Source: Myxococcota bacterium (GTDB taxonomy: Bacteria > Myxococcota_A > Polyangia > Polyangiales > Houyiibacteriaceae). From it: DNA of 42,523 nt. Below, piece after piece: positions 21,001 through 42,523 of this stretch. Made by a program: the position numbers. The stretch is from NCBI GenBank assembly GCA_039030515.1, contig JBCCEA010000032.1:1-42523 (forward strand), read 5' to 3'. How positions within the stretch are numbered: the stretch's first letter is position 1; every line of letters begins with the position of its first letter.

Positions 21001-24000
21001 TTCTTGGCCGGGACTGCACGTGTCGTCGAGATACGATGAGTATTCTGATATCCAAATGAGCTTGAGTCATGTGATGAACTGAAGAGACTGATCGCGTCAG
21101 GCTGTGAAGCGTTCTGGAGTGAGCCTTTTTCGGCAGCCTCTAAACGTTCCTTCAGTTTATCCTTGAGTTGCTGAACACGACGTCCGGAAATAGCGTGTAG
21201 AAAATCGGCGATTTCCGAGGCAGGCGCGACCAACGCGCGATCGACACCGACGTTTTCGATGGCTCGGGCAAACTTCACGGCGGTTCCAATGCGTTTTTTA
21301 GGATCCCGCTCGAGTGCGTCTGCAATGATTTTCGCGACTTCCTCCGGCAGCTCGGAGCGAACTTCGGAGGCCATCGGTATCGGCTTTTCGGCGACTTCTC
21401 GAGCCAGCGCCAGCGGGTTGGTGCCCAAAAACAACCGCTGGCCACACAGAGTCTCCCAGGCAACGATGCCGAGAGAGAATACATCCGATCGCTGGTCGAC
21501 CTCCTCCACATCCAACTGCTCCGGCGAGAAGTAGGCAAGCTTGCCTTTCAGTTCTCCGGTTTCTGTTTTTGCGTGTCTCTGAACAGCATGCGCGACACCA
21601 AAATCGCTGATTCGCACTCTGCCGTTGTCTGCGATAAGAATGTTCTGTGGCGAAATATCCCGGTGCACGAGTCGCAAATGGCTGCCGTTGGTGGCGGTCG
21701 CGTTGTGCGCATCTTCGAGGCCCAGAGCGGCCTGATGTATGATTCCCAATGCCACCGGGACGGGGACTGACCTGCCTGTAGATTCTGCATCCGCAAGTAG
21801 GTCGCTCAGCGGCACGCCTACGATGAGGTCCATGGCCATAAACAGCGTCTCTTGGCCGTCGCGACCTAGATCGAGAGCGTTGACCACGTAGGGACTATGG
21901 ATATTTCCCGCGACCCTGGCTTCATCCATAAACATGGCTACAAATCGTTCGTCGCGAGCGAGATGAGGCAGCATCAACTTGAGCGCGACCAGTCTTTGAA
22001 ACCCACCTTCTCCCACTGCACGGGCGGCATACACGGTAGCCATGCCTCCCGAAGCGATCGGAAAGAGCAGTTGATATCGACCCAGGTACAGACCCGGAAA
22101 CTCGGGGTTGGACTGGAGGGGCTCCGGGTCTGAGACCCGGCTTGCCTTTGTCGGTAGGTTGCGAGGGACGTACTCCACGTCACCAAAATGATGCAGCATC
22201 CTAGGACTTGGCGCCAGGCTTGTGCATCGCAGAACGCCTGACAGCATCGCTCGTTCGATTGGATCTTCCGTTTGCTTCAGCTCCGGTACCCATGCCGCGG
22301 GGTGATCGCGCTGCCGGATGTCTGACCACCGAGTCCAACTAGGGAACGCCGTACCCGGCCGGGGAACGCCGTACCCGGTCAGGTTGTGGAGATTTGAGTC
22401 AGATGGTCTCCACTTCGATGGTCGCACTGCCAATTCGAAGCTGTTTGGTTCTCGGTCTTCGTTCGATGATATTGGCTGGATTCGCAAAGCCGGCAGAGCC
22501 AAACTGTTGCCTCACCCGATAGACGTCGAGGTTCAATCGACCTGCCGGGATACGAAGCATTTTCTGAAGCTCGTCCTGGTAGATCCATCCTTCTTCACTG
22601 GGCGCGGCTTGTGCGTCAGTCCGATCTTCCATGCGATACCGGCCCAGAGTGAGCAAGAGGTAGTGATGGGCGCGAGAACCTAGGTCGATCATGCGACCTC
22701 GGTGCTTGACCTTGAGCTCTACATGCTCCTCGTCACGGGATACTGCGAAATGAAGCTCGGCATCAGAAACCAGTGAGGGCACAAATTGCGACACGTCGGT
22801 TTCAGGCCCCGAGATTTCTGGCGCACAGAATCGCCACCCTTGGCCCCCGGCGATGAATCCTTGCTGATCTTCGATGTCGATCAGGTCGTCTGCTCGCTCG
22901 AGCACCCAGCGGCCATCGGGCATGTTGTAAATATTGACCTCGGGTTGCTCTGGAGTGGGAAGAGCCAAAACCCCATCCCGCATGACGACTGGTGCACCAC
23001 CGTCGACGGGAAACGCCATGGTCGAGGGCTCGGTATCGTCGCTAAGCTCGTATGTCCATCGTGCATCGCCAAAGCTGATGCGAGCGTTTTTTTTGAGGGT
23101 CCGCGGCACCCCCGGCTCAAGTCGTTCCCCGTCGACGAACGTACCGTTGCGGCTCGCCAAATCTCGGACGACCCACTGAGCGTGTTGCCAGGCGATGCTC
23201 GCATGCTGTGACGATACGATCGAATCCTCAAGCCTGAGATGGCAACTGCGGCTGCGGCCCACCAGAAACGTTGAGCTCATTGCCTGAAGCTCGCCTGAGG
23301 CGACATGATTGAGAATGCCCATATATATACGTGATGACTCGGTATGTTTGATAACTTGCTAAGTCTGATGGTTTGCGACGTGCTCTTGGATGCGACGTGC
23401 TCTAGGACGCGAAGTACGCGAAAACTCGGCTCTTACGAACCTGTGAGTCTCTTCAAAGTATCGGGCAAGCCGGTCGTGCTGCAAATGACAAAATTATCGA
23501 AGGTCTAGGTTTCTTTCTGCGGCCTTAGGTGATCGGCTCCCTGCCGGTATGAGCGGGTTTACGGGGCTCAGCACGTTTCCTAGTCGGGCCGTTCATCTTG
23601 CTCGAGTGGATAGAGTAGAATCTCCGATCGCTCCTGGGGACCTATCGAGGCGTAACCGACGCGGCCGCCAAGGCGGAATCCAGCAGATTCACTCGGTATT
23701 CTGAGGTGTACGGTGATGTGGTTCCCCTCGCGCAGCAAGGCGGGCAGAATGCTCTGCTCCAATCGCTTGCGTGCTTCGTCAGGCCAAAGCGCGCCCGATG
23801 GCGCCCAAGCCTCTTCTGCCACCAGCGTGACTGAGGTTCCCTGAACGCCCAAACGCGTATTGCCACCAAAGGCACGAGTGCCACCCAGTGTCCACTGCCC
23901 CAAAATCATCTCACCCACTTCCACAGTGCGCTTCACAGATGTGGTGTTCAGCACGATGTCGAGTTCTGGAAAGGTATGCTTGAAGATCCAGTGCAAGGTG

Positions 24001-42000: not shown

Positions 42001-42523
42001 AAATGGTCGAGTCCGGCGATGAGTCGATTCTCGCGATCCGGACGGTGTACCCCGGTAAGCGTTTGCTGGTGGAGCTCCCGGAAGGTGAAGGCCCGGTTGG
42101 CGCCTACATCCTGTACTCGACACCCGGACCGCGCTGGAAGCATCTGCTGCGCGGCAGTAGCGGCGTTCGGCGGATTGTGATTCAGCCCAATGAGGCTCCA
42201 CGCTAAACCCCAGCGGGCCTATGTCGGCCCAAACAGCTGCTTTCCTCCGATGCTCGTCGCTCAACGTACCCGAAGTACGCCTTCACTCCTGCGCTTCGGG
42301 GGCGCTGGCTGTTTCGACCAACCTAGACCCGCTGGGGGGGGTGGTTGCTGAGTCGGCCCAAACAGCTGCTGACCGAAGATGCTCGTCGCTCAACGTACCT
42401 TAAGTACCCTCCTCCTCCTCGGCCCCGCGCGTCTCGATGGGTCTTAACGGCCAGCGCCCCGGAAGCACAGGAACGAAGGAGTAGTTCTGCTACTTCGAGT
42501 TCCGAGCATGGGAGGAAAGCGGG

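Follow-up and report, generated by a model that had tools for sequence, protein, structure and literature searches.

A type VI secretion gene cluster with Francisella-like parts in a Myxococcota genome and its predicted place in a widespread environmental lineage

Does a type VI secretion system of the Francisella kind (T6SSii) occur outside Francisella? The sections on this type in reviews up to August 2026 treat it as confined to that genus (PMC13584744, PMC6745524, PMC5924787). An account of these components finds IglC, PdpA, IglH, IglJ, and the lack of TssE puzzling, with no relatives outside Francisella (PMC9600919). The question arises anew from a 42,523-nt stretch of DNA (GenBank GCA_039030515.1, contig JBCCEA010000032.1), referred to here as the window. 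In it, an initial annotation had placed 14 ORFs at positions 23580..42206 and had proposed that they extend T6SSii, or a sister type, to this organism. We analyzed this cluster together with its closest public relatives and the rest of the assembly, which is 85% complete and comprises 75 contigs.

Gene content of the cluster

All 14 ORFs are present in the region (Table 1), and the family scores reported initially were reproduced when the NCBIfam, Pfam, and PDB phmmer searches were rerun. Nine of the 14 match families in the NCBIfam and Pfam scan, with TssE, TssF, TssM, and DotU all falling under their NCBIfam cut-offs. The 13 credible ORFs are open and free of internal stops, their spacing is operon-like, and overlapping stop/start junctions are kept. 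A sheath, a TssE-F-G-K baseplate, a TssL-TssM anchor, and a spike are encoded together, with the tube represented by a positional candidate only. Judged by its sequence, the region is a genuine type VI secretion gene cluster that appears to be intact. The contig terminates in a dispersed repeat 317 bp past g25, and therefore the cluster may extend further and parts may be missing. We could recognize neither an effector nor a PAAR protein in the window. Across the 85%-complete assembly, searches for PAAR, DUF4280, and IglG-like proteins and for a ClpB-like gene linked to the cluster gave no match.

Table 1. Predicted features of the cluster and of its neighborhood, in window coordinates.
Feature	Assignment	Position	Strand	Principal evidence
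Kinases	two Ser/Thr kinases, possible regulators	20460-22502 and 18998-20392	- and +	Pfam Pkinase 112 and 117 bits
FHA	FHA protein, possible regulator	22399-23322	-	Pfam FHA 69.1 bits
g12	TssG-type baseplate subunit	23580..24572	-	family profile vs PDB TssG
g13	IglI-family protein with TssA-like (ImpA_N) N-terminal region	24630..25577	-	IglI_fam 223.1 bits (cut-off 100)
g14	divergent AMP-binding (ANL/adenylate-forming) superfamily protein	25574..27289	-	Pfam AMP-binding 25.4 bits (cut-off 29.9)
g15	TssE (gp25-like sheath initiator)	27352..27885	-	TssE 20.8 bits (cut-off 53.2), GPW_gp25 21.5 bits
g16	TssK baseplate subunit	27800..29053	-	TssK 198.3 bits (cut-off 100)
g17	candidate inner-tube protein (IglC/Hcp role), sequence orphan	29269..29976	-	position between tssC and tssK
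g18	TssC, large sheath subunit	30000..31484	-	TIGR03355 475 bits
g19	TssB, small sheath subunit	31488..32051	-	TIGR03358 112.4 bits
g20, residues 1-665	PdpA-like spike hub (gp27/VgrG-base fold)	32402..34396	+	hhalign, HMM, Foldseek
g20, residues 662-846	short VgrG-type needle	34385..34942	+	profile A4 vs PDB
g21	TssF (IglH-related)	35163..36794	+	TssF 76.1 bits (cut-off 260.3), IglH/TssF 39.9 bits (cut-off 75)
g22	DotU/TssL, tail-anchored	36791..37525	+	Pfam DotU 59.3 bits, NCBIfam DotU 46.3 bits
g23	doubtful ORF in the 545-bp dotU-tssM gap	37602..38063	+	Arg/Pro-rich, no family match
g24	TssM/PdpB-like inner-membrane subunit	38071..41760	+	TssM 58.5 bits (cut-off 388), IcmF-related domains
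g25	IglE-type lipoprotein (TssJ role)	41772..42206	+	Pfam IglE_N 46.9 bits (cut-off 26)

Among the baseplate genes, TssK is clear and TssE weak, as had been noted. The sole PDB phmmer match of g16 at E ≤ 0.01 is 8dql (E 0.0036), an entry given as Francisella IglD in the relevant part of its report (PMC9600919). The g15 ORF overlaps g16 by 86 nt, and thus its true start is probably internal; in relatives, TssE reaches 57.7 bits in locus L037, which exceeds the cut-off, and 38.3 and 32.4 bits elsewhere. The TssF protein g21 does match the IglH model, as claimed, with both scores below cut-off, and its relative in L037 reaches 62.3 bits on IglH, in a match that covers positions 3-439 of the 464 in the profile. 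On its own, g12 matches Pfam TssG at E 0.066, and a profile of its family (A6, 29 sequences) finds the PDB TssG chains 6n38_G and 6giy_C at E 4.5e-4. This gene lies directly after the IglI gene, the position of IglJ in the FPI, and its L037 relative matches both the TssG (24.3 bits) and IglJ (23.1 bits) models. The IglI-family assignment of g13 stands, with further matches to TssA (TIGR03362, 31.1 bits) and ImpA_N (22.9 bits). The FPI's own IglI scores 199.9 bits on the same model, lower than g13, which indicates that IglI_fam is broad, as had been noted.

The envelope genes also read as first described. The DotU/TssL protein g22 has a C-terminal hydrophobic helix at residues 221-244. The very divergent TssM/PdpB-like protein g24 spans the membrane at residues 37-65 and 386-409, lacks a Walker A motif ([AG]xxxxGK[ST]) in its sequence, and scores close to FPI PdpB on the TssM model (60.4 bits for PdpB). 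It is followed by the IglE_N protein g25, whose signal peptide terminates in VLGC. The stricter NCBIfam IglE equivalog is unmatched by g25 at E ≤ 0.1, and its L037 relative matches both the IglE (56.2 bits) and TssJ (25.6 bits) models.

Five ORFs had been listed as genes without any family. Four of them can now be read, and only g17 is still an orphan. Besides g12 and the spike protein g20, these include g14, whose family profile (A5) finds gramicidin synthase and acetyl-CoA synthetases in the PDB at E 4e-13 to 5e-12. With homologues in 44 of 80 related loci, g14 is predicted to be a conserved accessory of this T6SS lineage. We found no counterpart of IglF in the cluster, and the g14 family compared with IglF gave an hhalign probability of 0.6%. 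The fourth, g23, has no family match in NCBIfam or Pfam and no homologue in the 80 related loci, and is probably not a gene.

By position alone, the FHA protein and Ser/Thr kinases encoded at 18998..23322 are possible candidate regulators of the cluster. FHA and Ser/Thr kinase genes also lie near T6SSi clusters that are controlled by threonine phosphorylation.

Spike and tube candidates

The absence of a full-size VgrG, and of any homologue of g20, had been counted among the features of the cluster. Neither description holds: BLASTP matches to g20 occur in 61 of the 80 related loci, and the protein itself is identified by profiles and by its predicted structure as the spike, so that the first statement is wrong in effect. 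A profile of the hub family (A3) aligns with FPI PdpA at an hhalign probability of 94.3% (E 1e-7, 168 columns), and the corresponding HMM scores FPI PdpA at 38.2 bits (E 9.8e-12). When the AF2 model of the N-terminal part (pLDDT 68, pTM 0.70) was searched with Foldseek, the top three matches were the PdpA entries 6u9f, 6u9e, and 6u9g (E 1.6e-22, TM 0.53), followed by a PVC spike (E 6e-20) and VgrGs (about 1e-18). The needle profile matches VgrG 8gra (E 1.3e-6) and Francisella VgrG 6u9e_B (E 5.4e-5, chain residues 37-185 of 189). The join between hub and needle is clean and in frame, giving one 846-aa protein. In none of the related loci does a single ORF match both halves; there they are two adjacent genes. 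Thus g20 is, by sequence and model, a spike that joins a PdpA-like hub to a short Francisella-type VgrG needle, and this T6SSii feature is found in the window as one ORF.

The tube is less readily recognized. As initially stated, no Hcp is evident in the cluster: none of the 14 ORFs matches PF05638 or TIGR03344 at E ≤ 0.1. The ORF g17, likely starting so as to encode 216 aa (29269-29919), occupies the place of iglC in the FPI, between tssC and tssK. It has no detectable similarity to IglC or Hcp and no PF05638 or PF11550 match in Pfam, and a search among 1.84 billion representatives recovered g17 alone. At the same position, 70 of 74 related loci have an ORF of at least 150 aa, and 66 of those 70 belong to one family. 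The AF2 model of this family (pLDDT 89.5) matches IglC 2qwu at E 2.1e-6 (TM 0.69/0.64), compared with E 1.3e-2 and TM 0.42 for the best Hcp. The HMM of this family has g17 as its top match in the window, though at E 0.27, and hhalign detects no similarity between the two (probability 0.55%). From its position, we infer that g17 is a candidate for the inner tube protein in the role of IglC.

Relatives of the cluster and its type assignment

Among solved sheaths, g18 is nearest to IglB, as had been claimed (PDB phmmer, 3j9o 399.1 bits, followed by 5n8n 341.5, 5mxn 329.9, and M. xanthus 5urw 302.2). The small sheath subunit does not favor IglA, also as claimed, and is uninformative between T6SS types: in one and the same genome, g19 gives BLASTP scores of 65 bits with FPI IglA and 67 bits with a T6SSi-type TssB. 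We searched 401 sampled gammaproteobacterial genomes with the window TssC and obtained top scores of 587, 533-504, 435, and 401 bits. The 401-bit match is a genuine FPI, locus L124 (genome G070), which was confirmed by the NCBIfam IglE, TssI_Fran, IglG, IglH, and IglJ models and by Pfam IglC and served as our FPI reference. The remaining matches, all T6SSi-type ones included, reach at most 360 bits, except for a second FPI-like cluster at 397.

In TssC trees with the T6SSiii plasmid loci of Capnocytophaga (L148) and Hymenobacter (L149) as outgroup, the sampled T6SSi clade is supported at 100/100 and leaves the window, its relatives, and the FPI outside. A joint clade of the window lineage and the FPI has support of 47/46, and the rival grouping of FPI with T6SSi is not rejected (p-AU 0.26). 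The end branch of the window TssC measures 0.92-1.13 against a median of 0.22, and the other window proteins share 20-38% identity with their relatives; relaxed selection could account for both.

The best 80 public loci share 50-57% TssC identity with the window, and many of them are cut short. Their carriers are methanotrophs, Thermodesulfobacteriota, Myxococcota, Planctomycetota, and Lentisphaerota. BLASTP matches occur in 80 of these loci for TssC, 75 each for TssK and TssB, 61 for TssF, 54 for DotU, 48 for g12, 41 for IglI, 37 for TssM, 23 for IglE, and 12 for TssE. The gene set is the same as that of the window, often extended by a ClpB-type ATPase gene within the cluster and by an IglG-like PAAR protein. 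FPI-specific models are matched in relatives, not only IglE, IglH, and IglJ (56.2, 62.3, and 23.1 bits) but also IglG (46.8) and TssI_Fran (27.5-32). The cluster is no myxobacterial oddity but a long-branched representative of a large and little-described environmental lineage, which occurs in at least 80 species-level genomes of several phyla. Within its own family, none of 36 other genomes carries a TssC of this type; in other families of the order, 2 of 24 genomes do. Named carriers include Methylobacter psychrophilus, Desulfobotulus alkaliphilus, Syntrophus buswellii, and Corallococcus terminator. In four of five named relatives' genomes, the window-type TssC is the sole TssC, and thus the lineage works, or worked, as a stand-alone system.

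Compared with the FPI, the window has IglB as the best solved-structure match of its TssC, the PdpA-like hub with short VgrG needle, an IglI-family protein, an IglE_N lipoprotein after the TssM/PdpB gene, a TssM whose score against the general model is about 58-60 bits, as in the FPI, and no ClpV. Four gene-order blocks are common to both (tssB-tssC-tube-tssK, tssF-dotU, iglI-tssG(iglJ), and tssM-iglE), and other members of the window lineage have an IglC-type tube. Hub and needle, however, are separate genes in Francisella and in all relatives. TssE, TssF, TssG, and TssK of the window are recognizable by general models, whereas Francisella lacks TssE, and its IglH and IglJ have no BLAST matches outside the genus according to the pertinent section of one report (PMC9600919). 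None of the FPI-like loci examined yielded a counterpart of the accessory g14, and the carriers of the window lineage are high-GC, free-living environmental organisms. Membership in T6SSii proper was rejected, with IglE and the models for IglJ, IglG, and TssI_Fran (NF041243, NF041248, and NF041249) unmatched by the window at E ≤ 0.1 and IglH below its cut-off. Because the cluster does not satisfy the FPI-specific equivalog models and TssE, TssF, TssG, and TssK are still recognizable, we regard the cluster as FPI-related rather than as T6SSii proper. The proposed link to Francisella is thus stronger than was first described, through hub, needle, gene order, and the relatives' tube, but assignment to T6SSii itself did not survive, the clade with the FPI is weakly supported, and the system is not special to this organism.

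Canonical T6SSi, represented by the genome's own fragments and by a Corallococcus terminator locus (L087), likewise has TssB, C, E, F, G, K, L, and M and a TssA-like protein. In contrast, the window TssC lies outside the sampled T6SSi clade, the core proteins are far under cut-offs trained on T6SSi, and Hcp, VgrG (TIGR03361), ClpV (TIGR03345), and TssJ (TIGR03352) are unmatched at E ≤ 0.1 among the 14 ORFs, which argues against membership. The T6SSiii loci of Bacteroidota have a contractile sheath machine in common with the window, but their TssC is separated from all others by a branch length of 5, and their annotation gives a TssN/O/P/Q/R membrane complex in place of TssL/M.

Two earlier statements about the rest of the genome need qualification. 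The cluster had been called a second one beside a canonical T6SSi. T6SSi pieces do exist, but the only TssB, TssC, and TssK of the assembly are those of the 23580..42206 cluster. Of the canonical system, the assembly contains no more than pieces at contig ends. Contig C44 ends with Hcp-TssE-TssF-TssG, of which TssE, TssF, and TssG score over their cut-offs; C47 carries VgrG; and TssM fragments lie where C23 ends and C20 begins. The reported lack of ClpV holds for the window and for the assembly, where the best match to the ClpV model is the ClpB on C29, with 1320 bits against the ClpB model, and a ClpB paralogue is also carried. It does not hold as a simple trait of the lineage, since a Clp ATPase gene of the ClpB type lies in 26 of the 80 related loci; the two proteins compared with both models gave 1152 and 1163 for ClpB versus 781 and 805 for ClpV.

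A predicted machine and its alternatives

We place the probability at roughly 70% that the window carries the genes for a contractile type VI secretion machine belonging to a widespread environmental lineage. By homology, TssB and TssC would form the sheath, and TssE, TssF, TssG, and TssK the baseplate. Tail-anchored DotU/TssL, the TssM without Walker A, and the IglE-type lipoprotein would anchor the machine in the envelope, and the TssA-like IglI-family protein would be part of it. The fused hub and needle of g20 would provide the spike, and g17 may build the inner tube. The contracted sheath may be recycled by a ClpB-type ATPase instead of ClpV, because the genome has ClpB and its paralogue without ClpV, and relatives encode a cluster ClpB-like ATPase. 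The neighboring FHA protein and Ser/Thr kinases could control firing, and g14 might be a lineage-specific accessory or a cargo-handling protein.

An unlikely alternative, though one to be taken seriously, is that the cluster is a deep, fast-evolving branch of T6SSi whose FPI-like features are ancestral or are artefacts of broad models (IglI_fam, IglE_N), with no special tie to T6SSii. The portion of a 2026 study that presents a TssC tree nests T6SSii within the T6SSi lineage (PMC13098142), and our own TssC trees leave a joint clade of FPI and T6SSi unrejected. The breadth of IglI_fam, the recognition of TssE, TssF, TssG, and TssK by general models, and Foldseek matches of the hub to canonical VgrG and eCIS spikes that are nearly as good as those to PdpA are consistent with this view. 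However, independent characters agree with one another: the split hub with short needle, a tube of IglC rather than Hcp type, the IglE-type lipoprotein, the IglI family, the ClpB-type ATPase, and the four gene-order blocks. The exclusion of both window and FPI from the T6SSi clade, the unmatched canonical models, and the matches of relatives to FPI-specific models also argue for a tie to the Francisella system.

It is improbable that the cluster is a remnant, decaying or horizontally acquired, that has lost the ability to fire, given thirteen long ORFs that remain intact, preserved junctions and spacing, and the clean fusion within g20. The long branches and low identities, the orphan g17, and the junk-like g23 would fit such decay, and the lack of this TssC type in all 36 family members would fit recent acquisition or patchy loss. 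The PAAR-like and cluster ClpB-like genes that were not found may sit past the repeat at the contig end, and the assembly covers only 85% of the genome's expected content. We give very little weight to the view that the cell has one T6SS, in which the canonical Hcp, VgrG, TssE-F-G, and TssM fragments supply tube and spike to the window sheath, as the single TssB, TssC, and TssK and the unrecognizable Hcp of the window might suggest. The duplicated baseplate and membrane genes point to two machines, and the canonical pieces all abut contig ends, so that their sheath genes are most simply unassembled. Furthermore, the window has its own spike, and relatives with the window type as sole TssC carry their own IglC-like tube.

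Returning to the environmental lineage that we favor, we see an even chance that it is an undescribed major T6SS lineage of free-living bacteria, including methanotrophic Gammaproteobacteria, and that the FPI system descended from it or from a common stock. The fact that several 'Francisella-only' parts are common to this lineage and the FPI suggests that they are probably no Francisella invention. If so, the IglC tube, the PdpA hub with short VgrG, IglI (TssA-type), IglE (TssJ-type), the IglG PAAR protein, and ClpB dependence would be long-standing properties of the lineage instead of adaptations to life in host cells, and the lineage would add a new conserved accessory of adenylate-forming enzyme fold. 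The environmental members hold Francisella-like parts in less diverged form. Bridging sequences occur in a relative, where the lipoprotein matches IglE and TssJ, the baseplate protein TssG and IglJ, and the IglI protein TssA. The lineage also hints at the identity of the missing Francisella parts. The named carriers, harmless and culturable, offer organisms in which such machines could be studied; their tube, hub, and g14-like proteins are publicly annotated as 'hypothetical protein'.

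Gene content and relatives of the cluster

The window's type VI secretion system (T6SS) cluster belongs to a widespread T6SS lineage, of which we found no description in the literature searched. It comprises two gene sets that are transcribed divergently. The observation of a divergent T6SS cluster, made in the initial annotation, is confirmed and extended here, and the family scores reported there for the ORFs were reproduced with NCBIfam and Pfam. The ranking of solved sheath structures was likewise recovered, wherein Francisella IglB scores 399 bits, followed by the sheaths of P. 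aeruginosa (341), V. cholerae (330), and M. xanthus (302). DotU (g22) carries a membrane helix at its C-terminus. The TssM-like protein (g24) has membrane segments at residues 37 to 65 and 386 to 409 and no Walker A motif. The IglE_N lipoprotein (g25) has a signal peptide that ends in VLGC, and no match to it was found in the PDB.

Coordinates of features in the window, in the remainder of the assembly (G000), and in related loci (L) and genomes (G)
Feature	Location	Description
T6SS cluster	window 23580-42206	minus strand: tssB (g19), tssC (g18), g17, tssK (g16), tssE (g15), g14, iglI-family gene (g13), g12; plus strand: g20, tssF (g21), dotU (g22), doubtful g23, tssM-like gene (g24), IglE_N lipoprotein gene (g25)
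g14	window 25574-27289	
Adjoining genes	window 16614-23322	directly adjoining the cluster: FHA-domain protein, two Ser/Thr protein kinases, 825-aa SLT lytic transglycosylase
Upstream modules	window 263-14912	ABC-2 transporter set with DUF4340 and ABC_transp_aux proteins; MoxR AAA-DUF58-transglutaminase-TPR gene group
Repeat element	window 42222-42403	two copies of a ~50-bp element within the last 300 bases of the contig
Hcp, TssE, TssF, TssG	C44, last 5 kb	all above NCBIfam cut-offs
Full VgrG	C47	canonical-system piece
TssM fragments	end of C23, start of C20	canonical-system pieces
Second divergent ClpB-like gene	G000:C6:28916-31390	ClpB model 924 bits (cut-off 1232), ClpV 637
Clp ATPases of relatives	L037:489-3119; L014:525-3134; 24 further loci	870-877 aa; just upstream of tssM
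Bridging lipoprotein	L037:7001-7498	IglE 56.2 bits, TssJ 25.6
Bridging baseplate protein	L037:19111-20025	IglJ 23.1 bits, TssG 24.3
Bridging IglI-family protein	L050:19469-20434	300.7 bits, TssA 25.1
g14-like gene, Methylobacter psychrophilus	L050:20422-21453	directly after an IglG-like PAAR gene
Tandem duplicate in G147 (L129/L130)	C1:580001-620000	tssB-tssC-tube-tssK-1436/1438-aa gene-iglI block

The nearest proteins to the window TssC in a collection of 5.8 billion proteins share only 50 to 57% identity with it and carry the names of Methylococcales, Desulfobacterales, Syntrophales, Planctomycetota, Myxococcota, and Elusimicrobia. A one-genome-per-species scan identified 392 genomes that encode a relative, and the loci of the best 80 were analyzed with 10-kb flanks. 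As assigned by record title, these are from Thermodesulfobacteriota (29), Gammaproteobacteria (20, mostly methanotrophs), Myxococcota (19), unclassified Pseudomonadota (5), Planctomycetota (3), “Deltaproteobacteria” (2), and Lentisphaerota (1), with one labeled Clostridia. The best 80 include a 2.2-kb contig (L069) labeled “uncultured Syntrophomonas sp.” (Bacillota), for which misbinning is a likelier explanation than a Gram-positive T6SS because the contig is so short. Window-type TssC is the sole TssC in four of five named genomes (Methylobacter psychrophilus, Myxococcaceae bacterium GXIMD 01537, Syntrophus buswellii, and Desulfobotulus alkaliphilus). Nearer to the window organism, it was found in none of 36 other genomes of the same family; outside the family but within the order, two of 24 genomes have it.

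Many of the best 80 of 392 loci are incomplete on their contigs, such that a missing BLASTP match to a window protein does not equal gene absence. TssC was matched in all 80, followed by TssK and TssB (75 each), g20 and TssF (61 each), DotU (54), g12 (48), g14 (44), IglI (41), TssM (37), IglE (23), and TssE (12), with no locus matching g17 or g23. The latter ORF is Arg/Pro-rich, lacked homologues in every search made, and is probably not a gene.

A Clp ATPase is encoded in 26 of these best 80 loci. The two that were scanned (L037 and L014) score 1152 and 1163 with the ClpB model and 781 and 805 with the ClpV model, below both cut-offs. By sequence, the cluster-borne ATPase appears to be a ClpB paralogue where the canonical type (T6SSi) has ClpV, which is reminiscent of Francisella, whose use of ClpB is described in PMC5924787.

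Parts in common with the Francisella pathogenicity island

TssC proteins from a sample of 401 gammaproteobacterial genomes were scored against the window protein, yielding a series that runs from a methanotroph (587 bits) through genomes G159, G314, and G147 (533 to 504) to two clusters of G268 (435 and 397) and to G070 (401), with all other matches at 360 bits or less. The G070 locus (L124) is classed as a Francisella pathogenicity island (FPI) by NCBIfam models (IglE 116 bits, TssI_Fran 216, IglG 313, IglH 451, IglJ 269, and IglI_fam 200) and by Pfam (IglC 454 bits). Four gene-order blocks are common to this FPI and the window, namely tssB-tssC-tube-tssK, tssF-dotU, iglI-tssG/iglJ, and tssM/pdpB-iglE. 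The relatives also give sub-threshold but significant matches to FPI-specific models, namely IglE (56.2 bits), IglH (62.3), TssI_Fran (27.5–32), IglJ (23.1), and IglG (46.8), and three bridging proteins among them each match two models (see table). The clusters of two low-GC gammaproteobacterial genomes, G147 and G268, stand between the FPI and the environmental lineage. Two FPI-like clusters (L126 and L127) are present in G268, and the tube protein of G147 has weak similarity to IglC (E = 3e-7 when seven sequences were searched).

The window copy is unusually diverged: its spike is fused, and its tube candidate is an orphan. Residues ~70 to 660 of g20 match a ~545-aa gene in the relatives and residues 669 to 846 match the next gene (~200 aa), wherein the junction between the halves is in frame and clean. 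No single ORF in any of the best 80 of 392 related loci matches both halves, and g20 is a fusion of two genes that are separate in the relatives. The family profile of the C-terminal part matches the VgrG needle 8gra in the PDB (E = 1.3e-6) and, over almost its full length, the short VgrG of Francisella (6u9e_B, E = 5.4e-5). For the N-terminal part, comparison of its family with PdpA of the genuine FPI gave an hhalign probability of 94.3% (E = 1e-7, 168 columns), and a plain HMM search gave 38.2 bits. Folding was restricted to residues 1 to 665, and the resulting AF2 model (pLDDT 68, pTM 0.70) is matched best in the PDB by the three entries for PdpA (E = 1.6e-22, TM 0.53), followed by a PVC spike (6e-20) and VgrGs (~1e-18). 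Because the PVC spike and VgrG scores trail PdpA so closely, the N-terminal part is predicted to adopt the general spike-hub fold, to whose other examples PdpA is preferred only slightly as the nearest. The profile of this part matched no PDB sequence, such that the PdpA link comes via hhalign, the HMM search against the locus, and the fold only, with the sequence-level match adding to the fold evidence.

A search of 1.84 billion representative sequences with g17 returned only g17 itself, which makes it a true sequence orphan. Among the 74 related loci where tssK follows tssC, 70 have an ORF of 150 aa or more between these genes, and 66 of the 70 ORFs form one family. This tube-position family has no sequence match in Pfam or the PDB; profile matches to nanobodies and Ig domains in these databases were dismissed as chance. 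Its AF2 model (pLDDT 89.5) has Francisella IglC (2qwu) as the best match in the whole PDB (E = 2.1e-6, TM 0.69/0.64), and the best Hcp match is at E = 1.3e-2 and TM 0.42. As hhalign detected no similarity between the family and FPI IglC (probability 0.3%), the predicted link is a matter of structure comparison only. From its position, we infer that g17 is a candidate tube protein. In a language-model atlas, the families nearest to g17 are phage tail-tube families (0.86–0.88, below the atlas threshold of 0.9), and a control with the relatives' tube protein reached unnamed clusters at 0.81 and was uninformative; the atlas was given no weight.

The family profile of g12 matches two solved TssG chains (E = 4.5e-4), and g12 is TssG; hhalign detected no similarity between this family and IglJ. 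The g14 family profile matches acetyl-CoA synthetases and NRPS adenylation domains (E = 4e-13 to 5e-12). This protein is a divergent member of the adenylate-forming (AMP-binding) superfamily that is conserved in this T6SS lineage, and a read-through of the family consensus revealed no evident conserved P-loop lysine. The idea that g14 is IglF, which rested on similar length and on the adjacency of g14-like and IglG-like genes in L050, is unsupported since hhalign of the g14 family with IglF found nothing.

Position relative to T6SSi and T6SSii

An IQ-TREE phylogeny was built from 72 TssC sequences, with one locus, from a genome flagged as unpublished, left out and two Bacteroidota T6SSiii sequences serving as the outgroup. 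The T6SSi-type clade (28 rows, 100/100 support) takes in the second G070 cluster together with the canonical TssC of Corallococcus and of the window's kin. One G268 cluster groups with the FPI (100/100), and the window falls in an environmental group of 36 rows (90/56) on a long branch (0.92 versus a median of 0.22). The backbone is without resolution. A 100% split in the first TssC tree represents T6SSi monophyly only and is no evidence for a clade of the remaining sequences. In the best tree of the 31-row set used for the AU test (LG+G4), the lineage, the FPI, and the intermediates come together, with support of just 47/46. Constraining the FPI to group with T6SSi lowers the log-likelihood by 5.9 units, and the test does not reject this arrangement (p-AU 0.26). 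Both the window and the FPI are outside the sampled T6SSi clade, and, given these support and p-AU values, the tree does not show the two as sisters. The case for their kinship rests on shared parts, not on the TssC tree.

The initial annotation had read the cluster as T6SSii-like, the type of the FPI. This reading stands insofar as the lineage has hallmark parts in common with the FPI, but the cluster does not, strictly speaking, belong to T6SSii, and the TssC tree leaves a sister relation unsettled. According to four articles, T6SSii occurs in Francisella only (PMC5924787, PMC6745524, PMC13584744, and PMC8632748). PMC13098142 presents a 2026 TssC tree with T6SSii nested within T6SSi, and also reports a T6SSii call in Dongshaea. 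When the full text of the literature was searched for systems of FPI-like or T6SSii-like type, the only papers recovered were on Francisellaceae and close kin, and searches for IglB in Deltaproteobacteria or T6SS subtyping in Myxococcota, Desulfobacterota, and Planctomycetota found nothing on subtyping. Database curators are already aware in part, as the NCBI IglI_fam model names such Methylobacter proteins. Public annotation still gives the name “hypothetical protein” to the tube, hub, and g14-like proteins in named carriers.

Remainder of the genome and flanking genes

The assembly (4.08 Mb, 75 contigs) is 85% complete. It encodes TssB, TssC, and TssK once each, in every case inside the window. 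The canonical T6SS of the same genome is present solely as pieces that abut contig ends. The proposal of a second system is reasonable in light of these fragments, but the window sheath is the sole sheath in the assembly. No ClpV, PAAR, or DUF4280 genes were found in the assembly at this completeness; a C29 protein whose match to the ClpV model was the best is ClpB.

A 16-base core of the element at the end of the window has 56 genomic copies on both strands, 30 of which lie no more than 600 bp from a contig end. The assembly breaks at this dispersed repeat, and therefore the cluster may be incomplete and extend past the contig end.

At the other end of the window, the upstream modules are ordinary envelope-related genes without an evident T6SS link. 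Among the genes directly adjoining the cluster, the Ser/Thr kinases have BLASTP homologues in only three of the best 80 of 392 related loci (L058, L064, and L084). The FHA-domain protein, kinases, and transglycosylase are possible partners in post-translational control and cell-wall remodeling.
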